A stretch of DNA of 64,000 nt from Pseudomonadota bacterium (GTDB lineage Bacteria > Myxococcota > JACRCW01 > JAFGSX01). The notes under the pieces were generated by a model, which ran no database searches, was not told the origin of the DNA, and was given only the letters and a program-made list of their open reading frames with translations. The stretch is taken from contig JBDRCO010000023.1 of assembly GCA_043821645.1 (NCBI GenBank), forward strand, positions 128,001-192,000. Direction: 5' to 3'. The translations under genes and the position numbers were made by a program. Below, piece after piece: positions 5,500 to 39,458 of the stretch (within the stretch, counting starts at the first letter, position 1; each line of letters opens with the position of its first letter).

Positions 5500-6339
5500 T
5501 CACATCACCACGAGTTCCATGGAGCTGTCGATGATCAGCGCCGACCCCTTCTCGAGGCGCTGCCAGCTCTCGGGAAAGTCGTGCACATCCGAGGCCACGA
5601 AGATGCCGCGGAAGCGCTGGTGGGATTCCCGCACACCAAAGGACACGTCCTCGTCGCGGCCACCGGCATAGCACAGCTCGCAATCCGGAATGCTGTCGCG
5701 CTGGGAATAGGCCACAGGCTCGCCCTGCCGCAGCACGAACATGCGGTGGCCATCCGTGGTGATCACGTTGGGCCCGCACACTTCCTGGATGCCGAGTTCG
5801 CCGGCCATGGCGTGGGCCTCCTCCAGGGTCGAGCGCAGGGCGGCCAGGGCGCCACTCGGATCACGGCTCCCATCCAGCTGATCCGCCTCGTGCAGACGCC
5901 ACAGAAACCGGTGAAAGAGTGCTTCCGCGCAGGTGTACCCCTGCACATCACGACGCAGGAAGTCGGGTATGCCGTCGAGCAGCCGCAAGCGGACTTCCTC
6001 CTGCTGACCCTCGCCCGGTGGCAGGCCACCGGTCATGGCCATCGCCCACTGCCGCAACTTGAAGGGCTGCAGGTCCCGCGCCGGAACCTTGGGCGGCTCC
6101 TCGGGGAAGGTGTGTGCCAGCACAACGCGGGAGTGCAGACCACCCACAAAGGACGCAAAGGGCTGCGCCTGGGTCGTCACGCTCGGCCGGCGATTGAGAA
6201 GCACGGCGTCGTCGGTGTAGTGGGCCACACCGTATCCCTGGCCCTGACCTGCCACGAGGGTCGTGCGCAGCTGATGCAGGGCACAGGCGAGGCGCTCGCG
6301 GTCGGTTCCGACATAGCCGACCATCCGACAGCTGACCAT
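5500..6339 (-). CDS. Class II glutamine amidotransferase-like (YafJ/EgtC-like) protein, probably degenerate
   Basis: N-terminal CRM, GYGVAHY, QPF, G.T..E and ASD pattern. The conserved HVR/HNG motifs are altered. Confidence 0.75.
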   Translation of the reverse strand: MVSCRMVGYVGTDRERLACALHQLRTTLVAGQGQGYGVAHYTDDAVLLNRRPSVTTQAQPFASFVGGLHSRVVLAHTFPEEPPKVPARDLQPFKLRQWAMAMTGGLPPGEGQQEEVRLRLLDGIPDFLRRDVQGYTCAEALFHRFLWRLHEADQLDGSRDPSGALAALRSTLEEAHAMAGELGIQEVCGPNVITTDGHRMFVLRQGEPVAYSQRDSIPDCELCYAGGRDEDVSFGVRESHQRFRGIFVASDVHDFPESWQRLEKGSALIIDSSMELVVM

Positions 6340-6619
6340 CTCGCATCCTCTTGTCCGGTGTCACTGGCGCGTCGACCGTGACAGCGTACTCTCACTCATG
6401 GTAGCGCGCACGATGCAGGGCCGCAATACAAGCTCCGGCACCCTTCCGCGTGCCAGGACCTTTTGCTAGCATGCGCCGGCGAGGGGAAACCTGCCCGCGA
6501 ACCACCACACGCGTGGGCGGGTTCACGGATTCCCGTGAAGCTCTTTGCTCGCACGAGCGACCGCCGGCGGCGGCACAGAGTGTGACCAGCAGGACGCGCC
6601 ACCGAGAACGAGGGTGACT

Positions 6620-8341: not shown

Positions 8342-8364
8342 CCCACCGCCAGGAGAAGCAGGCC

Positions 8365-8913
8365 ATGGACTACACGCATCCCCAGTACCATCCCCAGCTC
8401 AAGCAGCTGGCCGCGCAGATCGACCAGCTCGACTACTTCGAGATCCTCAACCTCGCGCAGGATGCGACGCCTGCAGAGATCAAGTTGTCCTATTTTGATC
8501 AATCGCGCTCCCTGCATCCGGACCGTTTCTACCACCTGGCCGACGAGGAGCTGAAGCTGGCCATCCACAAGATCTACAAGCGGATCACCGAGTCCTACAT
8601 GGTGCTCAAGGATCCGGTGAAGCGCGTGAAGTACGCCCAGGATGTGAGTGGCCCCGAGCGGCTGTCGCGCCTGCGCTTCACCGAGGTGGCCGAGGAAGAG
8701 GTCAAAAAGGAGCGGGAGGACGCGCGCGAGGTCTGCAAGACGCCCAAGGGCCGCCAGCTGTGGCGGCAGGTCGATTCGGACATGCGCGCCGAGAAATGGG
8801 ACGCCGCCTTCCGCAACCTGCAGACCATCTCGCTGTGGGAGCCTCAGAACGAGGTCGTCCAGAAGCTCAAGGGCGAGGTGGACCGCAAGCGAAAAGGTCT
8901 CCCGCCGCTGTAG
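8365..8913 (+). CDS. J-domain co-chaperone
   Basis: DYFEIL...HPDRF J-domain motif. Starts 23 bp after the Hsp70 gene. Confidence 0.9.
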   Translation: MDYTHPQYHPQLKQLAAQIDQLDYFEILNLAQDATPAEIKLSYFDQSRSLHPDRFYHLADEELKLAIHKIYKRITESYMVLKDPVKRVKYAQDVSGPERLSRLRFTEVAEEEVKKEREDAREVCKTPKGRQLWRQVDSDMRAEKWDAAFRNLQTISLWEPQNEVVQKLKGEVDRKRKGLPPL

Positions 8914-23860: not shown

Positions 23861-26068
23861 ATGAGCCATGCAACATCCACCACCATCGAGATCGTGCACG
23901 TGATGTCCGGCGCCGACATCCTGCGCGCCGGCGAGGTGCAGCTGGCCCTGGGCTTTCCCGAGGAGGTGGTCAAGGCCTGGATGCGCGCGGGTCACAGCCC
24001 CAACGCCTGGCTGGTGCCAGACCGGCGCAGCGCCGACGGAGTGGTGCAGTGGGCCTTCGAGTTTCCGCTGTACTACGCGCTGTTCGTGCAGGGCCTGTTC
24101 ACCCGCGGAGAGAAGATCCCGGTGCTGGTCAAGGAACGCGACTGGACGGACCTGGTCGAATACCTGCGCCTGACCTTGCTCGGGCTCCGTGGCGACGAGA
24201 TGAAGCGCGAAGGCGTGCGCGCCCAGGTGGTGGAGCAGCTGACCCGAGAAGGAGCGGCCATGGCGCTCAAGCGCAGCGATGGCGAGATCGCGGGGATCGA
24301 GGATTTTCTGGAGCCACACTTCTTCGACGCCGAGGGCGTGGTCGAATACCTCGGCCTGCGCGTCAAGGCCCATGGCGACAACGTCTACTCCTACTACACC
24401 GAGGCTGATCGCCTGGAGGAGGTGCTGTTGCAGACGGGAGGGGCCGAGGCGCCGCCCTACAGCACGCCGCTGGCGCCGGCCACGGTACCGGTCATGCCGC
24501 AGCCCTTCGAGGTCATCACCCTGGGTTCATCGTCGGGCTTCGATCCGGCCAACCCCTGCACCAGCGTGCTGGTTCAGGCCCATGGCCGGTTCGTGCTGGT
24601 GGACTGCGGGCCCTACGTGCGAGCCCTGCTCCGCCACGCAGGTGTCAGCTTGCAGCAGATCCAGGCGCTCGTCGTCACCCATGCGCACGAGGATCATGCG
24701 GTGGGGCTGAGCGCCCTGCTCGACCTGACGCACCGCCTGCAGCTGTTCGTGACCCGCGAGACCGCAGCCATCTTGCGCCGCAAGCTGGCCATCCTGAACC
24801 CGCAGGTGAGCCGTCCCGAGCGCCTGCTCGACGACGCCTTTGACCTGGTCTACGTGGAACCGGGCCGGGAGGTGAGTTTTCTCGGACTCACGCTGCGCTT
24901 TCACTACACCATGCACGCCATCCCCTGCACCGGCGTCGAGCTCAGCATGCGAGTCGGCACGGAGATCAAGCGCGTCCTCGTGGTCGGCGACAACAACGCC
25001 CGCGCCAACATCGAGCAAGCCGCGACCCAGGGCGTGATCGATGCTGCCCGTCGCGACGAACTGCTGGCGCTGTACGCGTGGCAGGGTGATCTGCTCATCG
25101 CCGACGCCGGTGGCGGCCTGATTCACGGTGTTCCGGCCGACTTCGCGGGCAATCCATCGAGGGACGTGGTCTGCGTGCATACCGGCGCGCTCAAGCCAGA
25201 AGAAAGACACCTGTATACCCTGGCCGCACCAGGTCTCCGCTACACCCTGGTGTCGGAGCAGCGTGGTCCGACCCCCCTTGAGCGCGGGCTCGCCCATCGC
25301 GCCCTGAACGAGGCTTTCACCCAGAGCGCCTCGGCCTGGCTGGACGCCATGCTCGACGCTGCCGAGCCCCTGAGCGTCAACCGCGGCCAGATCGTGGTGC
25401 GCAACGGCGACAGCGGTCAGGACCTGTACGTCGCCTTGACCGGTGAACTGGCCGTGTTGATCGAGGAAGACGGCACGTCGCGCCAGGTCGCCACCGTGAA
25501 CGCCGGCGAGGTCTTTGGCGAGATGGCGGTCGTCAACAGCGCGCCGCGCTCTGCCACGGTGATGGCTCAGACACCGGCGCGCCTGCTGCGCATCCCGGGG
25601 GAGCTGTTCCACTGCTTCGTGGCCGACGCCAAGCTGACCGGAAGCCTGCCCGAGCTGTGGTCCAAGCGCCACGACCTCGAGCGCGTGACCGTGCTCTCCA
25701 ACGCCTCGGTGACGACCCGCAACCTGCTGGCGCGTGCGGCGGTTCGGCGGCAGGTGGAGCCCGGTGCCACCCTCATTCGCGAGGGTTCCCAGAGCGACAC
25801 GGTGTTCATCCTGGTGCAGGGCCGGGTCCAGGTCTACAAGGGCGCCGCGCCTCTGCTCGCGGGAGGCACGCCCATCATCGTCGAGCCGGGCTCCCTGATC
25901 GGTGAGACCGCGCCCTTTCTCAAGCAAGCGCGCAACGCCAGCATCGTGGCACTCGACGCGTGCGAGGTGCTGGCCATTCGCGGCAGTGACTTCAAGCGCG
26001 TGGTGCAGTGTGCTCCGCAACTGTTCCTGGCCATCTCGCGCGTGGTGCGCTCGCGCCAGGCAGCCTGA
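23861..26068 (+). CDS. MBL-fold metallohydrolase with two cyclic-nucleotide-binding domains (putative cNMP-regulated phosphodiesterase)
   Basis: THAHEDH (HxHxDH), HAIPC and GD motifs. CNB motifs FGEMAV..APRSATV and IGETAP..ARNASI. GGAGG RBS. Confidence 0.88.
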   Translation: MSHATSTTIEIVHVMSGADILRAGEVQLALGFPEEVVKAWMRAGHSPNAWLVPDRRSADGVVQWAFEFPLYYALFVQGLFTRGEKIPVLVKERDWTDLVEYLRLTLLGLRGDEMKREGVRAQVVEQLTREGAAMALKRSDGEIAGIEDFLEPHFFDAEGVVEYLGLRVKAHGDNVYSYYTEADRLEEVLLQTGGAEAPPYSTPLAPATVPVMPQPFEVITLGSSSGFDPANPCTSVLVQAHGRFVLVDCGPYVRALLRHAGVSLQQIQALVVTHAHEDHAVGLSALLDLTHRLQLFVTRETAAILRRKLAILNPQVSRPERLLDDAFDLVYVEPGREVSFLGLTLRFHYTMHAIPCTGVELSMRVGTEIKRVLVVGDNNARANIEQAATQGVIDAARRDELLALYAWQGDLLIADAGGGLIHGVPADFAGNPSRDVVCVHTGALKPEERHLYTLAAPGLRYTLVSEQRGPTPLERGLAHRALNEAFTQSASAWLDAMLDAAEPLSVNRGQIVVRNGDSGQDLYVALTGELAVLIEEDGTSRQVATVNAGEVFGEMAVVNSAPRSATVMAQTPARLLRIPGELFHCFVADAKLTGSLPELWSKRHDLERVTVLSNASVTTRNLLARAAVRRQVEPGATLIREGSQSDTVFILVQGRVQVYKGAAPLLAGGTPIIVEPGSLIGETAPFLKQARNASIVALDACEVLAIRGSDFKRVVQCAPQLFLAISRVVRSRQAA

Positions 26069-26100: not shown

Positions 26101-27327
26101 ATGCAAACCGTGACCGCCGAACACGCCCTGGCTGTGACCACACAGGTCCAGATCCCGGGCGACGGAGAGGTGCTGCTACGCTGGCAGGCCTCGGGCTCGC
26201 CGTCCTCTTTGTGCGTGCTCATCATCCGCAGCGGCGCGGTGCCTGCTTACACCTCGATCGGTCTCACCGCGCAGAACACGTGTTACCACCTGCGCAACCT
26301 GAGCCGGCATCAGCGCTACATGGTTGCGGTGGCGGCCCTGGGTGGTGGACAGGTGGCTCTCAGTACCTGGACCTCGGTGACACCGCGCGCAGGCCTGCAC
26401 GCCCTGTGCAGCGACGACGGAAACGCTCTGACGCCACACCTCGCGCATGTGACCTCACTCTCCGCCATGCCTCAGGATCGCCGTCTCACCGCCTACTGGA
26501 AACTCTCGAGGGGCTTCGTCGACGGAGTGGTGGTCTCGCTGCACAGTGCAGGGCGCTGCCTCCACCGCTTCGAGCTGGAACCCGAAGTGGTCAGCCTGTC
26601 CCTGGACCAGGGTCGAGGTGTGGCGCTGCGCAATGGCGTGGACTACGAACTCCGCGTGCACAGCCGCTTCGCGGGTGTCGACGTACCTGGGCCCGAGGCG
26701 GTGACCTGCACACCCGCGGCCCAGGGTGAGGAGCGACAGGCGAACCGGAAGCACCCGCAGGCGAACCTGTTTTTCCCCTTTCTCTCCATCGACGCGGAGC
26801 TCAAGGTCTTCGACGACGACGGTTCCGATGAGGCCACGGCGCCGGCTCCTTTGCTGTGCCAGCACTGCCGCAAGCCTGTCTCCTGGGAGCGCTACGAACT
26901 GCGCTGCGTGGGCTGTGGTGCCGAGTACATCCCCAACAGCCTGGGCTCGGTCCTGGAGGTGCGCCGTCTGCGCTTTGGCACCTGCGCCTGTTGCTTGCCG
27001 CGGAGCATCCTGATCCAGAAGCGCGGCAGCACATCACTGACCTGCGCACAGTCCGGCAAGGAACACATCCGTACAGGCAGCGCGGGCTTTTCTCTCATCG
27101 AGGATCTCCCCCACGGCCTGTGCCAGTGCTGCCGGCCGCGCAGGCCCTTGCAGCGCAAGAGTGGAAAGGTGACCTGCAGCAAGACCGGCGAGCCGCACAG
27201 CAACCAGGACGGACGCTATGTGTTGGCGCCGACCCAGCCCGTCTTCGACGCTGCAGCCATCGACGCACTGCTCGATCAGGGGCTGGCGGAGATCTGCTCG
27301 ACGGGTGTCACGCGCGGTCGCCGCTGA
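26101..27327 (+). CDS. FnIII-like domain protein with Cys-rich Zn-binding tail
   Basis: Two FnIII-like segments (LRW...NL....Y.V.VAA and AYW...L.NGVDY.LRV), then CxxC-CxxC and two CxCC...C modules. GGAGG RBS and no signal peptide. Confidence 0.75.
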   Translation: MQTVTAEHALAVTTQVQIPGDGEVLLRWQASGSPSSLCVLIIRSGAVPAYTSIGLTAQNTCYHLRNLSRHQRYMVAVAALGGGQVALSTWTSVTPRAGLHALCSDDGNALTPHLAHVTSLSAMPQDRRLTAYWKLSRGFVDGVVVSLHSAGRCLHRFELEPEVVSLSLDQGRGVALRNGVDYELRVHSRFAGVDVPGPEAVTCTPAAQGEERQANRKHPQANLFFPFLSIDAELKVFDDDGSDEATAPAPLLCQHCRKPVSWERYELRCVGCGAEYIPNSLGSVLEVRRLRFGTCACCLPRSILIQKRGSTSLTCAQSGKEHIRTGSAGFSLIEDLPHGLCQCCRPRRPLQRKSGKVTCSKTGEPHSNQDGRYVLAPTQPVFDAAAIDALLDQGLAEICSTGVTRGRR

Positions 27328-27340
27328 ACAGCGCGGGGAG

Positions 27341-28849
27341 CTAAATGGGAGGAGGCAGGATGGGGAGGTCGAGTCGCCGGCGCTCGCTCCGCGCCACCGA
27401 GGCCTTGAGCGAGAAGTCTTGCTCGACCACCAGCTCGAGCTGGAGCGGGCCTGGGTTCTGCTGCAACCAGTCCGCCGGCACGCGAAGCAGGCCGACCAGC
27501 TCACGCTCGACGCTGTGCAGCTCGACAGCCTGGATCAGCCCCATCACCAGGTCCTGACCACGGGCCACCGGGGGGGATACGCTGGTGCCACGGCGGCAGG
27601 GCACACCCGTGTTTCGCGGTATGACCTCGTGCATGGCCCCACCTGGCAGCACCACGCCGATGGGTATCGAGACCACGTCGACCAGGTCAGGCCCAGCGGG
27701 CAGATCCATGGAGTGACCGAGGATGGCCGCACCGACGGCCACCGCGAGCTCGGGGTTGATGGCCTTCGTGGGATCGTTCTTGAACGCTGCAGACAGGCGG
27801 CGCTTGAGGGGCAGCATGCGCGTCTGGCCACCCACGAAGACCAGCTCATCCACGTCGTCACGCGTCATCCCGGCGTGCTTGAGCGCCTCGTCACAGGCGC
27901 CCAGGGTCCGCTCGATGAGGTTGGAAGTCAGGGTCTCCAGCGCATCGCGGATCAGCGTGTACTCGAAGTCCACGAACTGGCCATCAGCGCCGCTGCACAC
28001 GAAGGGGACGCGCAGCGTGGTCTCCTCCTGTGTCGACAGCGCGATCTTGGCGGCCTCGGCGGCCAGGAACACACGCTGCATGACCACCTTGTTGGACTGC
28101 ACATCCAGACCGCGAGCGACCTCGAAGCGCTCGATGAGCCTGCGACCTATCTGCTCGTCGAAGTCAGCGCCGCCCAGGAACGCGTCCCCACCTGTGGCGA
28201 GCACGCTGGCCAGGGCGCCGCGCACGGCCACCACGCTGACATCGAAGGTGCCACCTCCCAGATCGTAGATGAGCAGGGTTTGCTCTATTCCGCGCTTCTT
28301 GGCGGCGAACAGGGCAGCAGCGGTGGGCTCATTCACCAGGGCGCGGACCCGCAACCCCGCATCGCTGGCAGCTCGCGCCAGCTCTCGACGCTGGGTATAG
28401 CCGTAGTGCGCCGGCACCGTCAGCACGCAGTCCTCGAAGGGCGCGCCAGCGGCGGCCTGGGCCAGCTCGGCGATGCGGCGCAGCACCAGCGTGGCCACCT
28501 CTCGTAGATGGACCACCTGGCCATAGATCTCCACCGCGCACAGTCCGAGCTCATCTGGGACGAGGGGGTACAGGAAACGCTCGCGATGCCGCTGTACGAA
28601 GCTCGACTTGAGGGAGCGCCCGAGGAACCTTTTGAAGCCGTGGATGGTGTGCGTGGGGTCGTCGATGAGCTGGGTCCGTGCGTTGCTCCCGACGACGTGC
28701 TTGTCGCGTGCGCGGAACCAGACCACGGTGGGCAACACGGCGCTGCGCTCGCTCACAGGGACGACGCGCAAGGTGCGCTTGTGATCGATCCACGCGGCAC
28801 TGGTATTGGTGGTGCCGAAGTCGATACCCAGCACCGGTCGCGGCATCAT
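27341..28849 (-). CDS. Hsp70-family protein (second paralog, short C-terminus)
   Basis: [31 protein letters not shown] and VGGQTR motifs. Confidence 0.93.
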   Translation of the reverse strand: MMPRPVLGIDFGTTNTSAAWIDHKRTLRVVPVSERSAVLPTVVWFRARDKHVVGSNARTQLIDDPTHTIHGFKRFLGRSLKSSFVQRHRERFLYPLVPDELGLCAVEIYGQVVHLREVATLVLRRIAELAQAAAGAPFEDCVLTVPAHYGYTQRRELARAASDAGLRVRALVNEPTAAALFAAKKRGIEQTLLIYDLGGGTFDVSVVAVRGALASVLATGGDAFLGGADFDEQIGRRLIERFEVARGLDVQSNKVVMQRVFLAAEAAKIALSTQEETTLRVPFVCSGADGQFVDFEYTLIRDALETLTSNLIERTLGACDEALKHAGMTRDDVDELVFVGGQTRMLPLKRRLSAAFKNDPTKAINPELAVAVGAAILGHSMDLPAGPDLVDVVSIPIGVVLPGGAMHEVIPRNTGVPCRRGTSVSPPVARGQDLVMGLIQAVELHSVERELVGLLRVPADWLQQNPGPLQLELVVEQDFSLKASVARSERRRLDLPILPPPI

Positions 28850-29065
28850 GGCGGGCTCAAGCTCCCTTCCAGAAACAAGTTCTCCCCGCGACAGCAGCGC
28901 CGGGACACACTCCCCTCCGTCGAGAATCGAACGCAGGGCCAAGGCCCGTCAACGTATTTCCCTCTTTCGGTGCAGCTGCACCCCGCTTCTGATCCACCCT
29001 GGCGCAGAGTGCCCGCAGGAGGCTCCGGTCCACGCGATGGCCCCTGCTTTTTTCTGCAACGGCGC

Positions 29066-29081
29066 TGGCACGACTCTCGCT
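29066..29081 (+). promoter_or_regulatory. sigma54 (-24/-12) promoter candidate
   Basis: TGGCACGACTCTCGCT, with correct GG-N10-GC spacing, upstream of the 29208 operon. Confidence 0.7.
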
Positions 29082-29207
29082 TCACCTGAATGCGAGGACA
29101 GCAGGAGAGCCGACAGCATCGTCGTCCTCCTGGCGAGGCGCCGCGAGTCTGGAGCGCCTGTCCCGCACAGCGCGCGCTCGACCTGGGTCGACGCCGAGGA
29201 GGATGCC

Positions 29208-29546
29208 ATGTCGCAAACCCTGACAACCCTGGAGCCTATGATCGCTGGCCTGGTTCGCGCGATCTGCACGTGCTGCACCGAGGCGCAGCCGTTGACAGGT
29301 CACCCCGACCTCGACGCCACACAGCTTCTCTGTCCCTCGACACGCTTGACCTACCTCGACCGTGGCGACGGCCTGTTCGAGCCCGATGGGGGACAGTTCA
29401 GCGTGACGGTCGTGCCTACCCAGGGAGCCACCGCGCAGACCGGCGCCGAACCCGATGTGCTGAGCGATAGACCGCGACGCACAGGCAGCAAGGTCAGGAT
29501 CGAGCTGGAACGCGCGACCTTTGCTGGTTTCCGCCGCGCGCGCTGA
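29208..29546 (+). CDS. Small CxCC Zn-binding hypothetical protein (112 aa)
   Basis: GAGGAGG RBS and a CTCC-x18-C motif. First gene of the E2-JAB-E1 operon. Confidence 0.75.
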   Translation: MSQTLTTLEPMIAGLVRAICTCCTEAQPLTGHPDLDATQLLCPSTRLTYLDRGDGLFEPDGGQFSVTVVPTQGATAQTGAEPDVLSDRPRRTGSKVRIELERATFAGFRRAR

Positions 29547-29573
29547 AGACCCCATCGGGGTGAGGAGGACGCC

Positions 29574-30284
29574 ATGGCCGACAAGCTGACCCAGCTCTTC
29601 CCGCGCCGCGTCGACGGGCAGATCACACACCGGACCTGGAGCGTGGACCTGGGCACGGCGCTTCACGTCAACGACCTCGGGGATGGCGGTGGGAGCAGAC
29701 TCCATCGTGAGGTGCAAGAGATGGCCGAGCACTTGCCTCGCTGGGTGCTCACCGTCGCCGAGAACAGCCAGCGGATACCCTGCCCCTCCTGTGGCGGCGT
29801 CCTAGTATTCGACCGGGGAATCCGCTGTGCCGAGTGCGAGCGGGCGCTGGCCAGCCGGCAGATCAAGCGCGGCTTCCTGCTGGCATGGTTCGGGCTGATG
29901 CCGCCCATCGGCATTGACGGTCTGGGCCGGCTCAAGGCTGCGGTGATCAAGCGCGCCCCGCCCCAGCACGTCGTCGGACAGCAGGCTGGAATCGGCCACT
30001 TCTTGCTGGTACCCCTGACCGCGATCTACCCGCCGGGTTTTCCGCACCGCCAGGTCAAGGTGGCCTACCTGCCGGGCTTCTTCAGCATGCCGGGTGTCCC
30101 GTCGACAGGCATGCGTCACGACATCCACATGCTGGACCAGGGTTTCATGTGTCTTTTCGCCGGAGGCCAGTGGCAACCCGAGATGAGTTGCCGCGAGGTG
30201 CTGCAGCAGCGCGCCTACGCGCACGTGGTCAAGCTTCTCAATTTCGGCAATGGCAAGAAGAACGCCTTTGCCAAGGTGAGCTGA
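29574..30284 (+). CDS. Prokaryotic E2/UBC-like protein with inserted Zn ribbon
   Basis: RLHREVQEM helix, W.G strand, IYPPGFPH, H-x6-MCLF (putative catalytic Cys) and W.P. The CPSC...CAEC ribbon is an insertion. Confidence 0.75.
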   Translation: MADKLTQLFPRRVDGQITHRTWSVDLGTALHVNDLGDGGGSRLHREVQEMAEHLPRWVLTVAENSQRIPCPSCGGVLVFDRGIRCAECERALASRQIKRGFLLAWFGLMPPIGIDGLGRLKAAVIKRAPPQHVVGQQAGIGHFLLVPLTAIYPPGFPHRQVKVAYLPGFFSMPGVPSTGMRHDIHMLDQGFMCLFAGGQWQPEMSCREVLQQRAYAHVVKLLNFGNGKKNAFAKVS

Positions 30285-31186
30285 TGCGTGCTCTGCCGCG
30301 AATGGAGATCGGGCGCCAGGTGTGGCGGCGCGTGGCGCGCGAACTGGACCGGGTTGCACCCGCCGAAGGGCTGGCCGTGCCCCTGCTCGCGCTGACACCG
30401 CGGGATGTGCAACGCAATCCGTGCACGACACTGCGCCTGGAAGATCTCGAAGTGGTCACCATTGCCCGTGCGGTTCTCGTGCCGCCCGAGCTCCAGCGCA
30501 ACCACCTGATGAGCGTGCGCGCACTGGGCAGTGCTGACGAGCGTGTCAATCGGGAGGTGGTCGGACTCGGACTTCGCTATCCCAGGCTACGGCCCGCTGG
30601 CCACCTTCACTCGCACCCCTTTGCCCGGGGGAACACCTGGCCGTCGAGCGGCCTCAGCGGGGATATCGACGGCCACATGCGGCCCCTGCTGGTGCACAAC
30701 AGCGACGCGGGCGTCGAGGTCAGCTTCAGCTTCATCGCCTGCCGCGATCAAACAGGCCAGAGCTGGGTACTGCAGGCCTTCTCCCTGGATGGCTCCGGGC
30801 AGGTGCACGACCTTGGCCCCTGCCAGGTCGTCGAGGATGAGGCACTGATCGCGCGCGGTCTCTTCACGCCAGGGACGGAGCGTCAGCCCTTGCTGCGAGG
30901 TCTCTGGCAATGCTGGGTCAGGGACCTGAGACGGCAGGGGTGGGCCTGCCGCTGCGCCACGCTCCTCGAAGGCTGGCAACGCTGCATCGTCGAGATGGGT
31001 CAGGGTCTGTGCGCCGTGTTCCTGCTCCCGATCGACTTCCCGGACCGGCCATGCCAGGTCCACGTGGTCATGGCGGGTTCCTCGCGGAGTGAGCGCTTTT
31101 TCACGCCTCACCTGCGGAGTCTGGACACCGATGCCTGGGTGCGGGTCGCCCTGGAAGTGGAGGTTGCCTGCCGTGCCGCAGCATGA
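30284..31186 (+). CDS. JAB/MPN metallopeptidase with C-terminal E2/RWD-like segment
   Basis: N-terminal E, HSHP...PS...D JAMM motif and C-terminal LPIDFPDRP. TGATG coupling with the upstream gene. Confidence 0.8.
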   Translation: MRALPRMEIGRQVWRRVARELDRVAPAEGLAVPLLALTPRDVQRNPCTTLRLEDLEVVTIARAVLVPPELQRNHLMSVRALGSADERVNREVVGLGLRYPRLRPAGHLHSHPFARGNTWPSSGLSGDIDGHMRPLLVHNSDAGVEVSFSFIACRDQTGQSWVLQAFSLDGSGQVHDLGPCQVVEDEALIARGLFTPGTERQPLLRGLWQCWVRDLRRQGWACRCATLLEGWQRCIVEMGQGLCAVFLLPIDFPDRPCQVHVVMAGSSRSERFFTPHLRSLDTDAWVRVALEVEVACRAAA

Positions 31187-32657
31187 CGACTACTTCGCCC
31201 GGGTTCGCCCCCTCCTCGGGGAGGGTCTTGCCAGGATGTGCATCGACGTCGACGACCTGTCCCTGTGCAGCAAGACCATCGCGCTGCTCGGCTCGTGCAT
31301 GCTGGGGTCCGTTCACGTCCGGGACACCCAGGAGGTGGCCAGATGGCCCCTCGTCGAACGGGCGCGATCCCCCTCGCCCGGTGCCGCACTCCCGCGTGCC
31401 ATCGACGTGCTGAAGACCGCTCTGGAGTGGAACAACCCGCAACACGCGGTGCATCTCGACGGAGATCCCGCATCGTCCATCCATCTTCGAGGGCAGCGCA
31501 CCGCAGCCGGGGGGACCTGTGCCGTGCACTGGGACCCCGAGGCTCGACGCTACACCCTGCTCGTTCCGGAAAAGGACACCTGGTCCTGGCACCTGGCCTC
31601 TTACCTGTCTGCCCTGGACCTCCGGGATCACCTTCTAAAAAGGCGAATCCTTCCCCCCGGGACACGTCACCTCGGACATCCATCCTGGCCCTTTGCGCAG
31701 TCCAGCGCGCCCGTGCCGTCGTGGTGGGGACCCCAGCTCCGCACCCAGACAGGCCATGTGATGGTGGTCGGCCTGGGCAGCGTGGGCAGCGAAGTGTTAC
31801 GGACCCTGTCGGGCGCCCCGCTGCGCTTCACCCTGGTCGACGACGGACACGTGAGCGCCTTCAATCTGGTCCGGCAGTGGTTCGGGGCCGAGGAGATCGG
31901 AGAGCACAAGGTCGAGGCGTTGGCCTCGCGCGTCGGTCGAGATCGTTGCCACGCCGTTCCGCTGGCGCTCGGACAGGGCAACCGGGTCCAGTTGCATCAG
32001 CTCCTTGACGAAGACAGACCTGATCTGGTGGTGCTGTCGACGGGAACCCATGATCACAGTGCCCTGGCCGCGGAACTGTGGCGCGCAAAAATTCCGCACG
32101 TGGTGGCCTGTGCCTATCCCCAAGCCCGTTTCTTTGAACTCAACCTGGTCGACCCGGTCGCTGGCACACCCTGCCTGCACTGCTTCCGCGGCCGGCTGTT
32201 CGCCGGACCCGCCAGCGCGCCTGTGGTGGCGGACGAACTATCGCGATTTCTGTATCGCTCCGTCGACGACGCCGAGCGCGATCGGCTGTACACGGACCTC
32301 GTGGCGGAACCTGCTTCGCGCATCGAGACCTCGCGCATCGCGGATCTGGCGGCGCTGGCCGCAGCCGAACTGCTGCTGCCGCGGCAGCTCCGAAGTCCGT
32401 GGGTCGAACGGTGCTTCGACGAGGACACCACCTGCCTGCTCGGTGGCAATACCGTGGCCACCGTCGACTCGGGCGAGGTCGCCTATGGCATCTCCACTCC
32501 CGGGCAGGTGATTCGCCTGGGACTCGATGACGTCGTGGGCAGCGCTGAAATCCAGCACTGCGAGGTATGCGGCCGGACCCTCGAGACCGCACACCGGCTG
32601 CACTGGGACGAGGCTGCTCCCGGGTGCGTCGACGAGGCCCTTCTCGCTGCAGGGTGA
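31173..32657 (+). CDS. E1/ThiF-family adenylyltransferase
   Basis: VVGLGSVGS, LVDDG.V...NLVRQ, K, PCLHC and CEVC motifs. GTG start after GGAGG, overlapping the JAB gene end. Confidence 0.88.
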   Translation: MPQHDDYFARVRPLLGEGLARMCIDVDDLSLCSKTIALLGSCMLGSVHVRDTQEVARWPLVERARSPSPGAALPRAIDVLKTALEWNNPQHAVHLDGDPASSIHLRGQRTAAGGTCAVHWDPEARRYTLLVPEKDTWSWHLASYLSALDLRDHLLKRRILPPGTRHLGHPSWPFAQSSAPVPSWWGPQLRTQTGHVMVVGLGSVGSEVLRTLSGAPLRFTLVDDGHVSAFNLVRQWFGAEEIGEHKVEALASRVGRDRCHAVPLALGQGNRVQLHQLLDEDRPDLVVLSTGTHDHSALAAELWRAKIPHVVACAYPQARFFELNLVDPVAGTPCLHCFRGRLFAGPASAPVVADELSRFLYRSVDDAERDRLYTDLVAEPASRIETSRIADLAALAAAELLLPRQLRSPWVERCFDEDTTCLLGGNTVATVDSGEVAYGISTPGQVIRLGLDDVVGSAEIQHCEVCGRTLETAHRLHWDEAAPGCVDEALLAAG

Positions 32658-32675: not shown

Positions 32676-33983
32676 TCAGGAAACGGCCAGCCCCAGCGCG
32701 CCTTCGATGGCGCCCAGGTCGGCGGCGACCTCGACGATGGGGTTGGGCTGCGATGGCGTGAGTCCGGCCAGGCGGTCCGTGTGAAAGTCCACTCCGACCT
32801 GCGAAAACTTGGCTCCGTGCGCGGTCAGGATGACGACCACGCTCTGTCCATCGTCGATGATCTTCTGTGCCCGCAGGGTACGCAGGCCAGCCAGGGCCAC
32901 GCCTGAGTTCGGGCACACGGCGATTCCCGCACGATCGGCCAGGGCCTTGGCGTCCATCAACTCCTGCTCGCTGACCTCCTCGACCACGCCGTCAAACTCG
33001 CGCACCACTTTCTTGGCCTTGTGGTGGCTGACCGGTGCTCCGATGCGGATGGCCGAAGCCAGGGTGGGCTGTGCCGTGACCGTGACCATCTCGGAGAAGT
33101 CCTTCTGGTAGCTGCGGTAGAACGGATCCGCCGCCGCGGCCTGGATACCTGCAATGCGCGGCAAGCGATCGATGATGCCGAGCGCATGCGCCTCGCGCAG
33201 CCCCTTGCCCAGTGCGCTGATGTTACCTGCATTGCCCACCGGGATGACGAACCAGTCCGGGACCTGCCAGCCCAGCTGCTGGATGGCCTCGATACCGATG
33301 GATTTCTGGCCTTCGATGCGAAAGCTGTTCATCGAATTGAGCAGGTACACCGGATGGCGTTCGCAGATCTTCTGCACCAGGCGCATGCAGCCATCGAAGT
33401 CGGTATCCACAGCGAGGGTGGTGGCACCGTAGCTGATGGCCTGGCTGAGCTGCTCAGGGCTGACCTTGTTGGCGGGCAAGAACACCACGCCGCGCATGCC
33501 CTCGACTTGCGCCGCATAGGCAGCCATCGCCGCCGAGGTATCGCCCGTCGAGGCACAGGCCACCACAGGCCGGCCAAGGTGGTGAGCCCAGCTCACGCCC
33601 GCGGTCATGCCCCGGTCTTTGAAAGACAAGGTCGGATTCTCACCCTCGTGCTTGAGGTACAGCCTCTCTGTTGCGAAGGCGCGTGACAGCTTGGGTGTTC
33701 GATACAGGTTGGTGTTGCCCTCGGGCTTGCTCACCACCTGTTCAATGGGCAACTCGGGCAGGATCAACTCGTGGTAGCGCCACACTCCCGACACGTACGG
33801 CCACGCGCGCGTTCCGACACGCTCGTCGAAGCGTGCGCGAAGTTCCGGGTGGGCATGGCGCAGGCGTTCGAGATCGTGAACCACCTCGAGAAGCTCGCCG
33901 CAGTCACAGCGATAGCGCACCTCGTGCGTGTCATAGCTGCGTGCGCAGGCGATGCAGCGCAGGATCGACAGGCCACTGCTCAT
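32676..33983 (-). CDS. thrC: Threonine synthase
   Basis: EGNT, NPTLSFKDRG, CASTGDTS and PVGNAGN motifs. ATGA overlap with thrB. Confidence 0.95.
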   Translation of the reverse strand: MSSGLSILRCIACARSYDTHEVRYRCDCGELLEVVHDLERLRHAHPELRARFDERVGTRAWPYVSGVWRYHELILPELPIEQVVSKPEGNTNLYRTPKLSRAFATERLYLKHEGENPTLSFKDRGMTAGVSWAHHLGRPVVACASTGDTSAAMAAYAAQVEGMRGVVFLPANKVSPEQLSQAISYGATTLAVDTDFDGCMRLVQKICERHPVYLLNSMNSFRIEGQKSIGIEAIQQLGWQVPDWFVIPVGNAGNISALGKGLREAHALGIIDRLPRIAGIQAAAADPFYRSYQKDFSEMVTVTAQPTLASAIRIGAPVSHHKAKKVVREFDGVVEEVSEQELMDAKALADRAGIAVCPNSGVALAGLRTLRAQKIIDDGQSVVVILTAHGAKFSQVGVDFHTDRLAGLTPSQPNPIVEVAADLGAIEGALGLAVS

Positions 33984-34942
33984 AGGCGTCGCGCTCCATC
34001 GAGACTCAGGCGGGTGACGTGATGCTGACAGCTCAGACCGCGGGCTTTGCAGATCTGTGCCATGGCCAGCGCGGTGCGAGCCGCGCTCTCCGCGTCGAGG
34101 GTCAGCGCGAACAGGGTGGGCCCCGAGCCACTGATGGAGAAGGCCAGGGCTCCAGCCTCCAGCGCCGCGTCGCGACACGCGCCATGGTGCGGGATGAGCG
34201 TCGCCCGACAGGGCTCGACGATGCGGTCCGTGAGGGCGACCCGCAGCAGTTCGGCGTCGCCGGTGCACAGGGCCGCCACCACGGCGGCAGCATTGCTCCA
34301 CGTCGCCACCGCGTCGCTCAGGCTCACCTGGGCCGGCAAGATCTCCCGCGCCGCACGGGTCGAGATCTCGATGTCTGCACTCAGCAGCGCCACGTGCAGC
34401 TCCAGCTTCGGCTCCAGTCTGACGACCCTTAAGGGGTCGTTGCTCTGCACCACCGTGAAAGCCCCCAGCAAGCAGGGCGCCACGTTATCGGCGTGGCGGC
34501 TTCCGGAGGCCAGGACCTCGCCGTCGAGGGCAGCCTCGAGAACAGCTTGTGGCGAGAACCGCTCCCCGGTGATCTCGCAGCGCAGCAGCATGGCAGCGAG
34601 GGCTCCAGCGACGGCGCTGGCAGCGCTGGAGCCGAGGCCAGAGCACAGGGGCAAGCCCTTCTCGACGATGAGTTCCAGTCCGGCTTGCTGTAGGGCGTCG
34701 ATGCTCCACACGGAGACGGCAGCACGGCTCGCGGTGTTGGCCAGGACCTCGCGCGGCAACGCGCCCCCGTCTCCGGTCACGTCGACGAGGTGCACGCCGG
34801 GTCTGTCGACGATGCGTGCGCGCACGCGATCCCCCAGACCCTCGACGGCGAAGCCGAAGCAATCGTAGCCGGGCCCCACGTTGGCCACCGTCGCTGGCGC
34901 GAAGACCTGTATCCACCCATGAGCCGTCGGAGCCTGGGTCAT
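33980..34942 (-). CDS. thrB: Homoserine kinase
   Basis: PATVANVGPGYD, GLGSSAAS, HADNVAP and SGSGPT motifs. Confidence 0.96.
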   Translation of the reverse strand: MTQAPTAHGWIQVFAPATVANVGPGYDCFGFAVEGLGDRVRARIVDRPGVHLVDVTGDGGALPREVLANTASRAAVSVWSIDALQQAGLELIVEKGLPLCSGLGSSAASAVAGALAAMLLRCEITGERFSPQAVLEAALDGEVLASGSRHADNVAPCLLGAFTVVQSNDPLRVVRLEPKLELHVALLSADIEISTRAAREILPAQVSLSDAVATWSNAAAVVAALCTGDAELLRVALTDRIVEPCRATLIPHHGACRDAALEAGALAFSISGSGPTLFALTLDAESAARTALAMAQICKARGLSCQHHVTRLSLDGARRL

Positions 34943-37407
34943 GTGCGCCTCGCGATCTTGAGGATGTCCCCGAACACCCCCGCCGAGGTGACCTCGGCTC
35001 CTGCTCCAGGCCCGCGGATGATCAAGGGGTTCTCGCGGTAGCGCTCAGTGCGGTAGATGACGATGTTGTCCGGGCCACTGAGCTGACCCAGGGCGCTCCC
35101 GGTATCCACCTCGCTCAGTCCAACCTTGACGCCACTGGCGCCGATCTCCGCGGTGTAGCGCAAGACCTTGCCGCGCTGCCTGGCCCTTTCCACACGCGTG
35201 GCGAAGCTCGAGTCGAGGGAGGGCAGATGGCGCATGAAGCTCTCGACGTCGGGCAGGGCCATGGCCTCGGCCGGAAGCATGCCCTCGAGCTGTACCTGCG
35301 ACATCTCCAGGTCGAGGCCAAGCTCGCGGGCGATGATCAGAGCCTTGCGCGCAACGTCCAGGCCACTGAGATCGTCCCGCGGGTCGGGCTCGGTGTAGCC
35401 CTTCTCCTTGGCCGTCACCACGATCTCGCTCAGCGGGCGTCCCGCCTGCAGGCCACTGCAGACAAAGCCCAGCGTGCCCGAGAAGCAGCCCACGATGCCC
35501 TCGACGCGGTCGCAGGTGGCGAGCAGGTCCTGCAGGGTGAACAGCACCGGCAGCCCGGCTCCGAATGTGGTTTCGTGGTGGTAGCCCACACCCTGCTCCA
35601 GGGCGGTGCGCCGGATCTGGTGATACAGCGACAACTCCCCGGACAGGGGTTTCTTGTTGGCCGTGACCACGTGCAGTCCCCGTTGCAGGGCCGCCAGGTG
35701 CAAGGGCCCGGTCTCCTCGGCGGTGATGTCGACCAGCACGGTATCCAGGCGCCGCTCCCGGGACAGTGCATCAAGGAGCGCGGTGTCGTCGGGCCGCCCG
35801 CTACCCCCCAGGCTCTCGAGCGCCTCGCCCGCCGCCACGCGCCGCAGGGTCTCGTCGGGGATGCCCGCAGGCTGGTGCAGCCAGCTCGACCTCCCGGCCA
35901 CCCCCACCACCTTGAGCGACAGCCCGTGTTCCCGGAGCAGCCGGTCGCGCGCCTCGACGAGCTGCCGGAGCAGGGTGCGCCCGATGAGACCCTTTCCCAG
36001 GAGGAACACGTGGGTGTCGTGGGTCAGGCCGAAGGCCGTGTGCACGGCGCCCACAGCGCGATGCAGGTCTGCCTGCGCGACCACCACGGACACGTTGAGC
36101 TCACTGGAGCCCTGGGCAATGGCCAGGACGTTGATGCGCGCGCGCCCGAGGGCACTGAACAGTTTCTGACTGATGCCAGGCGTGCCCCTCATGCCCTCGC
36201 CGATGATGGCCAAGATCGCGACCTCGGTCTTGACGTCGATGCGATCGATGCGGCGCCGGCTCAGTTCAAGCTCGAATTCCTGCGAGAGCTCCTCGCGGGC
36301 ACGTTTACCGTCGTCCCGACGCACCAGGAAGCTGATGTTCTGCTCACTGGAGGCCTGGGAGATCATGAGCACGTTGATCCCGGCGCGGGCGGTGGCGCTG
36401 AACACGCGCCCGACCACTCCCGGTACGCCGATCATGCCACGGCCCTCGACGGTGACCAGAGCCATGTCCGAGATCGAGGTGACGGTCTTGACCCCGCCTG
36501 CGGTCTCGTCACGCTGTCCCGTGATGCGCGTGCCCGCGACCTCGGGCCGCAGGCTGTTTCGAATACGCAGGGGGATGTTCGCGCGCACCGCCGGCGTCAT
36601 GGTGCTCGGGTGCAGCACCTTGCTGCCAAAGTAGGCCATCTCCGCGGCCTCGCGGTAGGTGATGACGTCGAGGATGCGGGCCTCGGGCACGACCCTCGGA
36701 TCCGCGGTCATCACGCCGTCAACGTCCGTCCAGATCCAGATCTCCCTGGCGTCCAGGTAAGCCCCGATGAGCGACGCGCTGTAGTCGCTGCCGCCGCGCC
36801 CCAGGGTCGTGGTCAAGCCATCGACAGTCGCCGCGATGAAGCCCGTGACGACGGGGACACCGGACTGCGCCAGGCTGAGCAGCCGCTCCCTCGCCACCAC
36901 GCGACTGTGCTCGTGATCCACCACGGCCCGGCCAAAACTGGCGTCCGTGCGCAGGATCTCGCGGGCGTCCACCGCCTCCGAGTTCGCTCCGGCGCGCCGC
37001 AGGGCTGCCGCGAACAGAGGTGCGGCCAGGCGCTCGCCAAAGGACTGGATGAGGTCCAGGGAGCGCGGTGTGAGTTCCTGCAACAGCCGCACGCCATGCA
37101 GAAGCTGCTCCAGATCGAGGATCAGGCCAGTCACCGACGACAGGAGGGACTCCCGGCTGGCGCCCTGGTCCGTCAGTTCTTCCGCGGCCTGCAGATGGCG
37201 TCGCTTGAGCTGCGACTGACGGCTCTCGACCTCCCCTGTCCGGCGCTCGCTGGCCAGTCCAGCAAGGGCGATGAGCTCGTCGGTGACTCCGGCCATGGCC
37301 GAGGTCACCACCACCGCCGGTTGACCGGCCAGCAGGACTTGCTTGGCCGCGCCCAGCAAGCGCGTGGCATCGGCCACCGAGGTTCCACCGAACTTGTGCA
37401 CCAGCAT
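34939..37407 (-). CDS. thrA: Bifunctional aspartokinase/homoserine dehydrogenase
   Basis: KFGGTSV, GRGGSDYSA, ACT domains, G.G.IG, VTANKK and YTEPDPRDDL motifs. Start trimmed to ATG 37407. Confidence 0.96.
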   Translation of the reverse strand: MLVHKFGGTSVADATRLLGAAKQVLLAGQPAVVVTSAMAGVTDELIALAGLASERRTGEVESRQSQLKRRHLQAAEELTDQGASRESLLSSVTGLILDLEQLLHGVRLLQELTPRSLDLIQSFGERLAAPLFAAALRRAGANSEAVDAREILRTDASFGRAVVDHEHSRVVARERLLSLAQSGVPVVTGFIAATVDGLTTTLGRGGSDYSASLIGAYLDAREIWIWTDVDGVMTADPRVVPEARILDVITYREAAEMAYFGSKVLHPSTMTPAVRANIPLRIRNSLRPEVAGTRITGQRDETAGGVKTVTSISDMALVTVEGRGMIGVPGVVGRVFSATARAGINVLMISQASSEQNISFLVRRDDGKRAREELSQEFELELSRRRIDRIDVKTEVAILAIIGEGMRGTPGISQKLFSALGRARINVLAIAQGSSELNVSVVVAQADLHRAVGAVHTAFGLTHDTHVFLLGKGLIGRTLLRQLVEARDRLLREHGLSLKVVGVAGRSSWLHQPAGIPDETLRRVAAGEALESLGGSGRPDDTALLDALSRERRLDTVLVDITAEETGPLHLAALQRGLHVVTANKKPLSGELSLYHQIRRTALEQGVGYHHETTFGAGLPVLFTLQDLLATCDRVEGIVGCFSGTLGFVCSGLQAGRPLSEIVVTAKEKGYTEPDPRDDLSGLDVARKALIIARELGLDLEMSQVQLEGMLPAEAMALPDVESFMRHLPSLDSSFATRVERARQRGKVLRYTAEIGASGVKVGLSEVDTGSALGQLSGPDNIVIYRTERYRENPLIIRGPGAGAEVTSAGVFGDILKIARRT

Positions 37408-37572
37408 GATTGGACCTCGCCAGTCGAGAGGCGTCGCACCACCCTCAGGCGGTTCCGATTCGTGAAGGCTGATAACATCCTCTCGTGCACTGCATGTCCA
37501 CAGGCCCTGCACGGCATCCGCAGAGTTCTGGTCGGAGTCGCCTGCTCCCACATGGTACCTTCGCACAGGGCT

Positions 37573-37923
37573 ATGCTGACCTGCATCGGTGGCTATACGG
37601 GGTCGTGCGATACCCGCGCGCAGGCGACCTGCACCACCGACGTGTCCTGCCCGGCCGGCTTCTGCTGCCACGAGGGCACCTGTGCGCGCATTTTGGACGC
37701 CAGCGCCACTGCTGACGGCTCGTCCGATGTCATCGTCTCGGTGGAGGCCTCCGGGGACATCCAGGTGCTGCCCAGCGCCGGGCTCTCGAGCTTGGCTGGC
37801 GCAGCCAAAGGCCGTGGTGTGACGTCCCACGGGGTCACAGTGAGACTGCGCGCCCCCCCGATCGGGGGCCTGGAAAGCGACCCTCCGTCTCAGGTCGAGG
37901 TAGAGCGCCTGGTCGTGCCCTGA
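37573..37923 (+). CDS. Small Cys-rich hypothetical protein or gene remnant
   Basis: CTTDVSCPAGFCCHEGTC is a myxobacterial-type disulfide module. Start uncertain. Confidence 0.35.
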   Translation: MLTCIGGYTGSCDTRAQATCTTDVSCPAGFCCHEGTCARILDASATADGSSDVIVSVEASGDIQVLPSAGLSSLAGAAKGRGVTSHGVTVRLRAPPIGGLESDPPSQVEVERLVVP

Positions 37924-38063
37924 GCTGGCCCCGCCCCCCTCCCCTTTCCCCAACCGGGCGATGACGCCCCCGGAGCAAACCGCTAGACTGCGCCGCGCGA
38001 TCAGCCGGAAAGCGCGATCGCGATCACCGCACGCAGGGGCAGGTCCCCGACGAGGTCCAGGCC

Positions 38064-39458
38064 ATGGCAGCAACATTCAAGGTCATCAGTCCCGTCGACG
38101 GTTCAGTCTATGTCGAGCGTCCCCTGCCCAGTGACGACGAGGTGCAGGGCGCCCTCAACAAGGCTCGCGGTGCCCAGCGCGACTGGAAGGCCACCCCCCT
38201 GATCCAGCGCCAGATGCTCATGCACAAGTTCGTCGACGCCATGGTCTCCCACGCCGACGAGATCGCCACCGAACTGACCTGGCAGATGGGGCGCGCCATT
38301 CGCCACAGCCCGAACGAGATCAAGGGCGGTTTCAACGAGCGGGCCCGCTACATGATCGACGTGGCCGAGGAGGCCCTGACCGACGTGCGAGTCGGCCCCA
38401 AGGAGGGCTTTCGCCGCTTCCTGCGCCGCGACCCCCTGGGCACGGTGTTCGTGATCGCACCCTGGAACTACCCCTACCTGTGCTCGGTGAACGCCGTGGT
38501 GCCCGCCCTCGTCGCTGGCAACAGCGTGATCCTCAAGATGTCGGCCCAGACCCCGCTGGTCGCCGAGCGCTACGCCCAGGCGGCCAAGGAGGCCGGTCTT
38601 CCCGAGGGTCTGCTGCAGTACCTGCACGTCAATCACGATCAGGTGTCGCGCATGATAGGCGACGAGCGCGTCAACTTCGTGGCCTTCACCGGCTCGGTGG
38701 ATGGCGGTCGCTCGGTGCACCGCGCCGGCGCCGAGCGCTTCATCAACATGGGCCTCGAGCTCGGCGGCAAGGACCCGTCCTACGTGCGCCCCGACACCAA
38801 CATGGCCCACGCCGTGGATTGCCTTGTGGACGGCAGCTACTTCAATGCGGGTCAGTCCTGCTGCGGCATCAAGCGCATCTACGTGCACAAGGACGTCTAC
38901 GATACCTTCATCGAGGGCTTTGTGGCCCTGACCTACCAGTACAAGCTGGACAATCCCCTGGAGCAGAGCACCACCATCGGTCCCGTCGTGCGCGCCAAGG
39001 CTGCGGCCGACATCCGCGCCCAGATCCAGGCTGCCGTGGCCAAGGGCGCCAAGACCCTGATCGACGAGAAGAAGTTCGACAAGGCCAAGAACGGCACGCC
39101 CTACATGGCGCCGCAGGCCCTGGTGAACCTCGACAACAGCATGGACTTCGTGCGCGAGGAGACCTTTGGCCCCGCCGTGGGCATCCTCAAGGTGTCCTCA
39201 GACGACGAGGCCATCAAGCTCATGAACGACAATCGCTACGGCCTGACCGCGTCCATCTTCACCTCTGACCTCGACGCGGCCGAGCGCATTGGCGACCAGA
39301 TCGACACCGGCACCTGGTACATGAACCGCTGTGACTACCTCGACCCGGCCCTGGGTTGGGTAGGCGTCAAGGACTCGGGCATAGGCTGCACCCTGAGCAA
39401 GGTGGGCTACGAGTACCTCACCCGACCCAAGAGCTTTCACCTGCGCTGGAAAGTCTGA
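38064..39458 (+). CDS. Aldehyde dehydrogenase family protein
   Basis: PWNYP, FTGS, LELGGKDP, GQSCC, EETFGP and YGLTAS motifs. Confidence 0.96.
   Translation: MAATFKVISPVDGSVYVERPLPSDDEVQGALNKARGAQRDWKATPLIQRQMLMHKFVDAMVSHADEIATELTWQMGRAIRHSPNEIKGGFNERARYMIDVAEEALTDVRVGPKEGFRRFLRRDPLGTVFVIAPWNYPYLCSVNAVVPALVAGNSVILKMSAQTPLVAERYAQAAKEAGLPEGLLQYLHVNHDQVSRMIGDERVNFVAFTGSVDGGRSVHRAGAERFINMGLELGGKDPSYVRPDTNMAHAVDCLVDGSYFNAGQSCCGIKRIYVHKDVYDTFIEGFVALTYQYKLDNPLEQSTTIGPVVRAKAAADIRAQIQAAVAKGAKTLIDEKKFDKAKNGTPYMAPQALVNLDNSMDFVREETFGPAVGILKVSSDDEAIKLMNDNRYGLTASIFTSDLDAAERIGDQIDTGTWYMNRCDYLDPALGWVGVKDSGIGCTLSKVGYEYLTRPKSFHLRWKV

Follow-up and report, generated by a model that had tools for sequence, protein, structure and literature searches.

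Published accounts describe two kinds of characterised bacterial system in which an activating enzyme (E1), a conjugating enzyme (E2) and a deubiquitinase (DUB) act together: Bil and Bub systems conjugate beta-grasp proteins, and type II of the cyclic oligonucleotide-based anti-phage signalling system (CBASS) conjugates an enzyme's own C-terminus (PMC10557695, PMC11601596). The BilABCD genes run in the order ubiquitin-like protein (Ubl), E2, DUB, E1, and in BilA a conserved Gly comes before as many as nine unconserved residues, which the DUB takes off (PMC10557695). In type II CBASS the protein whose C-terminus the E1/E2 machinery activates lacks the beta-grasp fold, and the reaction is opposed or processed by a JAB peptidase (PMC10557695, PMC11601596). 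Here we describe a six-gene operon that contains E1-, E2- and JAB-like genes and a candidate modifier of a different kind. It lies in a 64,000-nt stretch of DNA (hereafter the window) from Pseudomonadota bacterium (GTDB Myxococcota; JACRCW01; JAFGSX01), assembly GCA_043821645.1, contig JBDRCO010000023.1, positions 128,001-192,000 of the forward strand. The subject is parts of three genes on the + strand, which encode a 408-aa protein with fibronectin type III (FnIII) domains and a Cys-rich tail (FnIII-Cys, or tail protein), a 112-aa small protein with a C-x-C-C motif (small CxCC protein) and a 236-aa E2-like protein. The original prediction, made from the letters of the window, was that the tail of the first reuses the Cys modules of the other two, and that the shared modules could mediate homotypic interaction or substrate tagging.

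The six genes encode, in order, a metallo-beta-lactamase (MBL) protein with cyclic nucleotide monophosphate (cNMP)-binding domains, the FnIII-Cys protein, the small CxCC protein, the E2, the JAB and the E1 (Table 1). This order is conserved, contiguous and on one strand at all eight related loci with enough flanking sequence (L004, which is on the same contig as L016, and L005, L006, L017, L018, L020, L021 and L022); at a ninth locus, L019, the contig ends just before the small-protein gene. The block that runs from the small protein through E2 and JAB to E1 is unbroken in the window, at the eight loci and also at a more distant locus, L037, which belongs to a Blastocatellia metagenome-assembled genome of 34% G+C and reads short-form tail protein, 77-aa CxCC protein, E2, JAB, E1. 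The FnIII-Cys gene and the E2 unit are one six-gene operon. The original prediction had tied the two units into one system through their Cys modules; one system they are, and the stronger evidence for it is this synteny, at the eight loci and L037, rather than the likeness of the motifs. No published description of the operon or of its module was found in a search that did not extend to the supplementary operon tables of the Corbett laboratory.

Set against BilABCD types I and II, the window order of modifier, E2, JAB and E1 matches the Bil order. An additional N-terminal domain and pairs of Cys are common to the two E1s, and the candidate modifier also has a conserved small residue followed by an unconserved extension. 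The two differ in four respects: the small protein of the window is not beta-grasp in its predicted model (mean predicted local distance difference test, pLDDT, 70.8); its conserved end is the Ala of LERATFA and not Gly; the operon has extra conserved genes for the MBL-cNMP and tail proteins; and the E2 has a zinc-ribbon insert. Neither PADLOC nor Pfam gave a Bil-type match in the window. PADLOC matched the E1 alone, and of its E1-E2 models only the E1 part was covered. In scans of the region, Pfam and NCBIfam recognised the Hsp70, ThiF, MBL and cNMP parts and nothing else, and with these libraries no beta-grasp gene was seen among the six genes of the operon.

All five Cys motifs of the original prediction are present in the sequence where it placed them, and the CxCC spacings of x16, x14 and x18 are correct. 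The bare pattern C.CC.{10,22}C, on the other hand, is common in the genome (154 of 21,363 stop-to-stop open reading frames, ORFs, of at least 150 aa), so Cys spacing alone proves nothing. It could then be that the resemblance is coincidental and that the motifs are unrelated zinc knuckles with no common origin or partner. Narrow profiles, built from the FnIII family of the window only, fit such a coincidence: in hhalign the small protein scored 46.8% against module 1 and 22.7% against module 2, scores that were reached by 8 and 24, respectively, of 120 shuffles in which the Cys columns were kept fixed, and the same profiles gave no cross match in a search of 88,891 six-frame ORFs of the genome with HMMER. 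With the window families alone, no similarity above that of the Cys-fixed shuffles was seen, the outcome named beforehand as refuting the original prediction, and from these results by themselves homology would have been rejected. Intermediate sequences overturned this result. Diverse alignments of the two tail modules (67 and 65 sequences, picked by regular expression from two-module proteins, with modules of fewer than 17 residues dropped) contain many members of the wider tail family that read C-x-C-C ... L-x-C-P-x-[ST], as does the small protein. Aligned with these diverse profiles over 39-41 columns, the small-protein module scored 96.5% (E 1e-9) in one case and 95.3% (E 2e-8) in the other. 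Of 100 Cys-fixed shuffles made for each, not one came up to the true value (z 10.3 and 6.3). As a control, the E2 ribbon and the tail ribbon scored 3-5% against the same module profile. When the 88,891 ORFs were searched with the module hidden Markov model (HMM), the FnIII protein was found at 7.7e-24 and the small protein, the only match after it, at 1.3e-4; the next score was 0.32. Further weak genome matches of the module HMMs were rejected as out-of-frame junk. The pairing of tail protein and small protein also recurs in another phylum, at L037. We regard coincidence as very unlikely for the CxCC motifs. The kinship proposed between the FnIII protein and the small protein is borne out by the diverse profiles, the shuffles and the genome search, and on these comparisons all three CxCC-xn-C copies belong to a single homologous module. 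Within the tail, the two modules are clear duplicates of each other (hhalign 97.5%, E 6e-12; the real score reached by none of 100 Cys-fixed column shuffles).

Coincidence does hold for the two CxxC ribbons, one in the tail and one inserted in the E2, whose kinship was the other half of the original prediction. The E2 insert aligns well with a diverse set of tail ribbons (62 sequences, after four rows without a ribbon were dropped), at 96% in hhalign with none of 120 shuffles reaching the score. In the genome-wide search with the tail-ribbon HMM, the best match other than the query's own is a housekeeping Trm112/UPF0434-like ORF (E 0.0017), which outranks the E2 ORF (16th, E 0.57), and the reverse searches returned nothing. 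Special kinship is thus not supported; judged by these profile searches, the two are ordinary short zinc ribbons.

CxCC-xn-C appears to be a real domain of the zinc-ribbon type, about 40 residues long and presumably zinc-binding, without a library name. That it might be an unnamed domain had been suggested, and indeed no Pfam or NCBIfam family covers the module. It is found in two settings, as a tandem pair within a tail domain of about 150 aa and as a single copy heading a small protein of about 100 aa. For the FnIII-Cys protein, which has 96 homologues and whose 12 Cys are kept without exception in an alignment of 32 homologues (32 of 32) and in one of 88 (88 of 88), AlphaFold2 (AF2) gave a model of pLDDT 89.4 and predicted template modelling score 0.86, in which a beta-rich tail and a last helix come after two FnIII domains. 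Foldseek matched the model to tandem FnIII pairs at E about 1e-8 (<=2e-8) over some 210 columns; membership of FnIII, a seven-strand beta-sandwich fold, is thereby borne out structurally, although Pfam fn3 reaches only 0.075 for the window protein. In the model the tail ribbon forms a beta hairpin at residues 259-269, and module 2 has strands at 349-353 and 356-359, the second of which ends at C359. The order of elements is alike in each module: C-x-C-C comes first, then a pair of strands, of which the later one stops at the fourth Cys, and then one or two further strands.

The wider distribution and fusions of the tail, which the original prediction had proposed to trace with HMMs, were explored with a profile of the tail from an alignment (A6) of the window and the eight loci, run against 1.84 billion representatives. 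The search returned 106 proteins at E<=0.001, 68 of them at <=1e-10, with FnIII, HEAT, short and trypsin-linked partners. Ribbon, two CxCC modules and helix make up a mobile domain of about 150 aa that stands behind varied N-terminal parts, and the C-terminal helix is kept also in the short and HEAT forms. Among the 102 representatives not already seen, Pfam (E<=1e-5) found HEAT only in 26, fn3 in 3, a trypsin-like peptidase in 7 (2 of which also have HEAT) and no family in 66; at this threshold it placed no family on the tail itself in these representatives, nor on the tail of 20 short forms. Two proteins of about 820-860 aa, L035:8279-10753 (-) and L036 ~6219-8801 (+), combine HEAT, a CxCC module, a ribbon and a trypsin-like peptidase. 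Locus scans with the single tail proteins P0150 and P0143 gave no match, and with P0146 HEAT-repeat matches only. We note that the short-form tail proteins (alignment A9; P0150 and others) share an N-terminal M-x-Y-F-x4-G, a low-complexity spacer and a conserved end ...G-L-F-D-x-x. On the strand opposite the L035 protein, the neighbours are SWIM, DUF5691, MoxR AAA_5, DUF5682 and VWA_CoxE genes.

The small CxCC protein has 40 homologues. Its four Cys are invariant in 23 of 23 sequences; when fragments are taken in as well, in an alignment of 40 rows, C42 still never varies and its three companions are conserved in at least 90%. Its ATG is preceded at 6 nt by a putative ribosome-binding site, GGAGGA. 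The AF2 model, calculated with the 40-sequence alignment, has strands at residues 39-41, 47-51 and 57-63 and no helix, and residues 64-112 are without regular structure. Within the head (residues 18-63) the order of elements is the same as in the tail modules. The small protein is therefore predicted to be a zinc-ribbon-like head with a disordered tail, and not a beta-grasp protein. Its closest match in the PDB is 2jny, a Trm112-like structure (Z 4.1, root-mean-square deviation 4.1, 59 residues aligned); Foldseek of the model against the PDB gave nothing at E<=0.001. UPF0434/Trm112p was also the Atlas lead for the small protein and for tail module 2, with all Atlas scores <0.85 and so below the bar for naming. 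Pfam Trm112p scored 0.08-0.3 in 2 of the 20 short-form tail proteins and in 1 of the 40 small proteins. The likeness to Trm112p/UPF0434 ribbons thus consists of the 2jny and Atlas leads and of the UPF0434-like ORF found by the tail-ribbon HMM, with every score of the window proteins below the thresholds at which the tools name a family. Ribbons of that class have a knuckle on either side of a beta hairpin and bind one Zn; in the window proteins, unlike those ribbons, the first knuckle is C-x-C-C and the second gives a single Cys-Pro. No Pfam or NCBIfam family was found for the small protein, in the window member or across the 40 members, and a whole-protein search of the genome found no paralogue.

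The remaining genes supply candidate machinery for conjugation. The Pfam match of the E1 to ThiF (6.3e-11) is above the cut-off. Its profile matches TcdA and MoeB (2.5e-9 to 4e-9) as well as the catalytic subunit of the NEDD8 E1 (2e-7 to 3e-7), and 58 E1-family sequences of the PDB are found at E<=0.01. A Gly loop GxGSxGS, the Cys pairs and C435 are among its invariant columns. The matches and the Gly loop show the E1 to be a member of the ThiF/MoeB/UBA superfamily, whose mark is a Rossmann-type adenylation domain with such a loop. In a UBC core the catalytic Cys follows an HxN-like motif; in the candidate E2, all 10 of the sequences compared have C70, C73, C85, C88, H182, H185 and C193. The JAB/JAMM motif consists of a Glu, H-x-H, a Ser and an Asp; the corresponding residues of the candidate JAB (E28, H109, H111, S121 and D127) are likewise invariant in 10 of 10, and the assignment, made by this motif and by gene position, is that of a candidate. 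At L018 the JAB and E1 lie in a single open frame of 796 codons (L018:9329-11716, +), which may be a natural JAB-E1 fusion or reflect a lost stop codon.

The C-terminus of the small protein has the pattern of a precursor. All 40 small proteins contain the heptapeptide LERATFA; it is terminal in 15 of them, and in the other 25 between 2 and 45 unconserved residues lie beyond it. The distant homologue at L037 (77 aa) ends ...EERFG-LK. Because the small-protein gene sits in the BilA (Ubl) slot, because it encodes a conserved end with variable extensions, and because of the features of the E1, JAB and E2, we read the small protein as the modifier of the system, which would be trimmed, activated and transferred, with the tail protein docking to the same partner. 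We regard it as an even call whether this holds, and the same judgement covers the reading of the operon as a ubiquitination-like conjugation pathway, of which the modifier is a part. In such a pathway, the JAB peptidase would trim the variable residues beyond LERATFA, the E1 would adenylate the exposed Ala106, and the E2 would hand the modifier, via C193, to a target. Many proteins of the ubiquitin pathway carry integral ubiquitin-like domains; the tail protein, with two built-in copies of the head domain of the modifier, might in a similar manner dock to a shared partner, while bringing the target or acting as a sensor might fall to its N-terminal part, be it FnIII, HEAT or another.

Several observations weigh against a modifier role. 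Some 25 C-terminal residues of the small protein are conserved (SDRP...K.RI.LERATFA), more than an E1 tail needs, and this long conservation could reflect a different role; the tie between this C-terminus and the E1 is one that we infer. The confidence of the small-protein model is middling, so an unusual fold is possible, and the search for the small protein in longer versions or in fusions found none, which is weak evidence. The profile matches of the E2 are weak (E 0.42 for UBE2G2 and E 1.9 for UBC9, both in the active-site region at residues 131-204), and the JAB has no Pfam or PDB sequence match. The two HEAT-CxCC-trypsin proteins at L035 and L036 have no E1, E2 or JAB within about 8 kb, and the module is thus not confined to conjugation systems.

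The length of the conserved C-terminus, which exceeds that of typical E1-bound tails, would suit a small protein that is itself never conjugated, a zinc adaptor or regulator (an E3-like bridge, or an inhibitor that mimics the module) whose C-terminal peptide is a docking motif. The absence of a beta-grasp fold from the model fits such a role, and so does the paralogy of its head with the domains of the tail protein, since the two could compete for one site. An E1-E2-JAB set, however, needs a C-terminal substrate, and only the small protein has an invariant end with variable extensions; its gene also sits where a Ubl gene would be expected. We judge the adaptor role unlikely.

The C-terminus of the MBL-cNMP protein is a different candidate for the E1 and the chief rival to the small protein. 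It reads R-x-A-A, with the stop codon directly after it and hence without extension, in nine of nine cases (window ~26040-26068 and the eight loci), and an end so fixed in sequence suggests recognition by the E1 or JAB, which also counts against the small protein as modifier. The E1 substrate would then be this Ala-Ala, in the manner of the CD-NTase of type II CBASS and of what has been proposed for 6A-MBL systems, and the small and tail proteins would be targets, regulators or adaptors. The MBL-cNMP gene, whose start codon was inferred from where the tblastn alignments begin (~23861), lies directly upstream of the FnIII-Cys gene at the eight loci, and Pfam finds cNMP_binding (1.4e-35, two stretches) and Lactamase_B_2 (5e-12) in its product. 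There is also a precedent: operon type '6a' has E2-E1-JAB proteins beside an MBL (PMC1779556). The window E1, E2 and JAB resemble this 6A-MBL type (row 6a of that source) in being linked to an MBL-fold protein, and the E1 weakly matches the NCBIfam model '6A-MBL cap2_3' (1.2e-9; 37 bits against a cut-off of 320). The E2, JAB and E1 of the window are three separate ORFs, unlike the 6A-MBL triple fusion, and only L018 joins JAB and E1; moreover, the MBL is fused to two cNMP-binding domains and has two CxCC-module proteins as obligatory neighbours. The MBL-cNMP end is already mature, which leaves no trimming role for the JAB, whereas the small protein has the precursor pattern; and L037 lacks an MBL-cNMP gene, although genes for the five other proteins (tail, small, E2, JAB and E1) are there. 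It therefore seems improbable to us that the MBL-cNMP C-terminus is the E1 substrate. Upstream of the L037 tail protein, in the MBL-cNMP slot, there is instead a Ser/Thr kinase gene (L037:7149-8786, +); the kinase has a zinc-ribbon-like N-terminus (CxxC...CP) and a hydrophobic C-terminal segment.

Type II CBASS, with Cap2 and Cap3, shares with the window the E1/E2 machinery, the JAB and a candidate substrate that is not beta-grasp. In the window, unlike CBASS, the E1 and E2 are unfused and the candidate substrate is a dedicated zinc protein of about 100 aa. Pfam and NCBIfam identified no nucleotidyltransferase (CD-NTase) family among the six proteins.

Sampling of 400 other genomes from the window's phylum turned up the E2 in 8 of them, and sampling of 400 others from the phylum of L037 in none. 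The operon is rare and patchy, a distribution typical of accessory or conflict systems. G+C is 65-69% throughout the window. The Hsp70-like gene, which encodes the nucleotide-binding part and a short C-terminal region, parts the FnIII-Cys gene from the small-protein gene and so splits the operon. It is not at that position in any of the eight related loci, so the insertion is peculiar to the window; the sequence around it showed neither repeats on its flanks nor any pattern of a promoter or terminator. Downstream of the operon, at 32676-38076 (-), the translations read as threonine synthase, homoserine kinase and aspartokinase-homoserine dehydrogenase-like ORFs. If these assignments are correct, the operon has housekeeping genes and not a defence island as its neighbours.

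Table 1. Features of the operon and of the gene inserted in it (positions in the window)
Feature	Position	Strand	Details
MBL with two cNMP-binding domains	23861-26068	+	first gene of six; ends ...RQAA
FnIII-Cys (tail) protein, 408 aa	26101-27327	+	two FnIII domains, conserved linker, Cys-rich tail domain
Tail CxxC-x12-CxxC zinc ribbon, CQHCRKPVSWERYELRCVGC	26857-26916	+	residues 253-272; C253, C256, C269, C272
CxCC module 1, GTCACC-x16-C	26983-27066	+	C295/C297/C298/C315, then K320 E321 H322
CxCC module 2, GLCQCC-x14-C	27121-27198	+	C341/C343/C344/C359, then E364, H366
C-terminal helix of tail domain	27253-27300	+	residues 385-400; then GV(S/T)R and variable basic end
Hsp70-like gene	27341-28942	-	Pfam HSP70 1.2e-99, profile positions 1-421 of 599
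Small CxCC protein, 112 aa, candidate modifier	29208-29546	+	immediately upstream of E2
Small-protein CxCC module, AICTCC-x18-C	29265-29333	+	C20/C22/C23/C42-P43
C-terminal heptapeptide LERATFA	29505-29525	+	residues 100-106; residues 107-112, GFRRAR, are a non-conserved extension
E2-like protein, 236 aa	29574-30284	+	zinc-ribbon insert; candidate catalytic C193 (nt 30150-30152)
E2 zinc-ribbon insert, CPSCGGVLVFDRGIRCAEC	29781-29837	+	C70-C88
JAB/JAMM-like peptidase	30284-31186	+	E28, H109-S-H111, S121, D127; His...Asp nt 30608-30664
E1-like (ThiF family) enzyme	31131-32657	+	N-terminal extra domain, two CxxC pairs, invariant C435; start 31131 or 31089

An unannotated domain, which occurs in at least 106 sequence clusters and in fusions with FnIII, HEAT and protease parts, would receive names and boundaries. 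A tentative extension of the modifier reading is that the conjugated tag consists of the zinc-ribbon head and the flexible LERATFA tail, and that the same head serves as the docking domain in a family of receptors. If this is true, the two-sided logic of ubiquitin, a free modifier and a built-in module, would have been invented independently on another fold, and the FnIII, HEAT or protease parts of the receptors would choose the target or sense the trigger. With a dedicated small modifier built on a zinc ribbon, the range of cargo open to an E1-E2 cascade would grow, and a partner family with the same domain would make the system modular.

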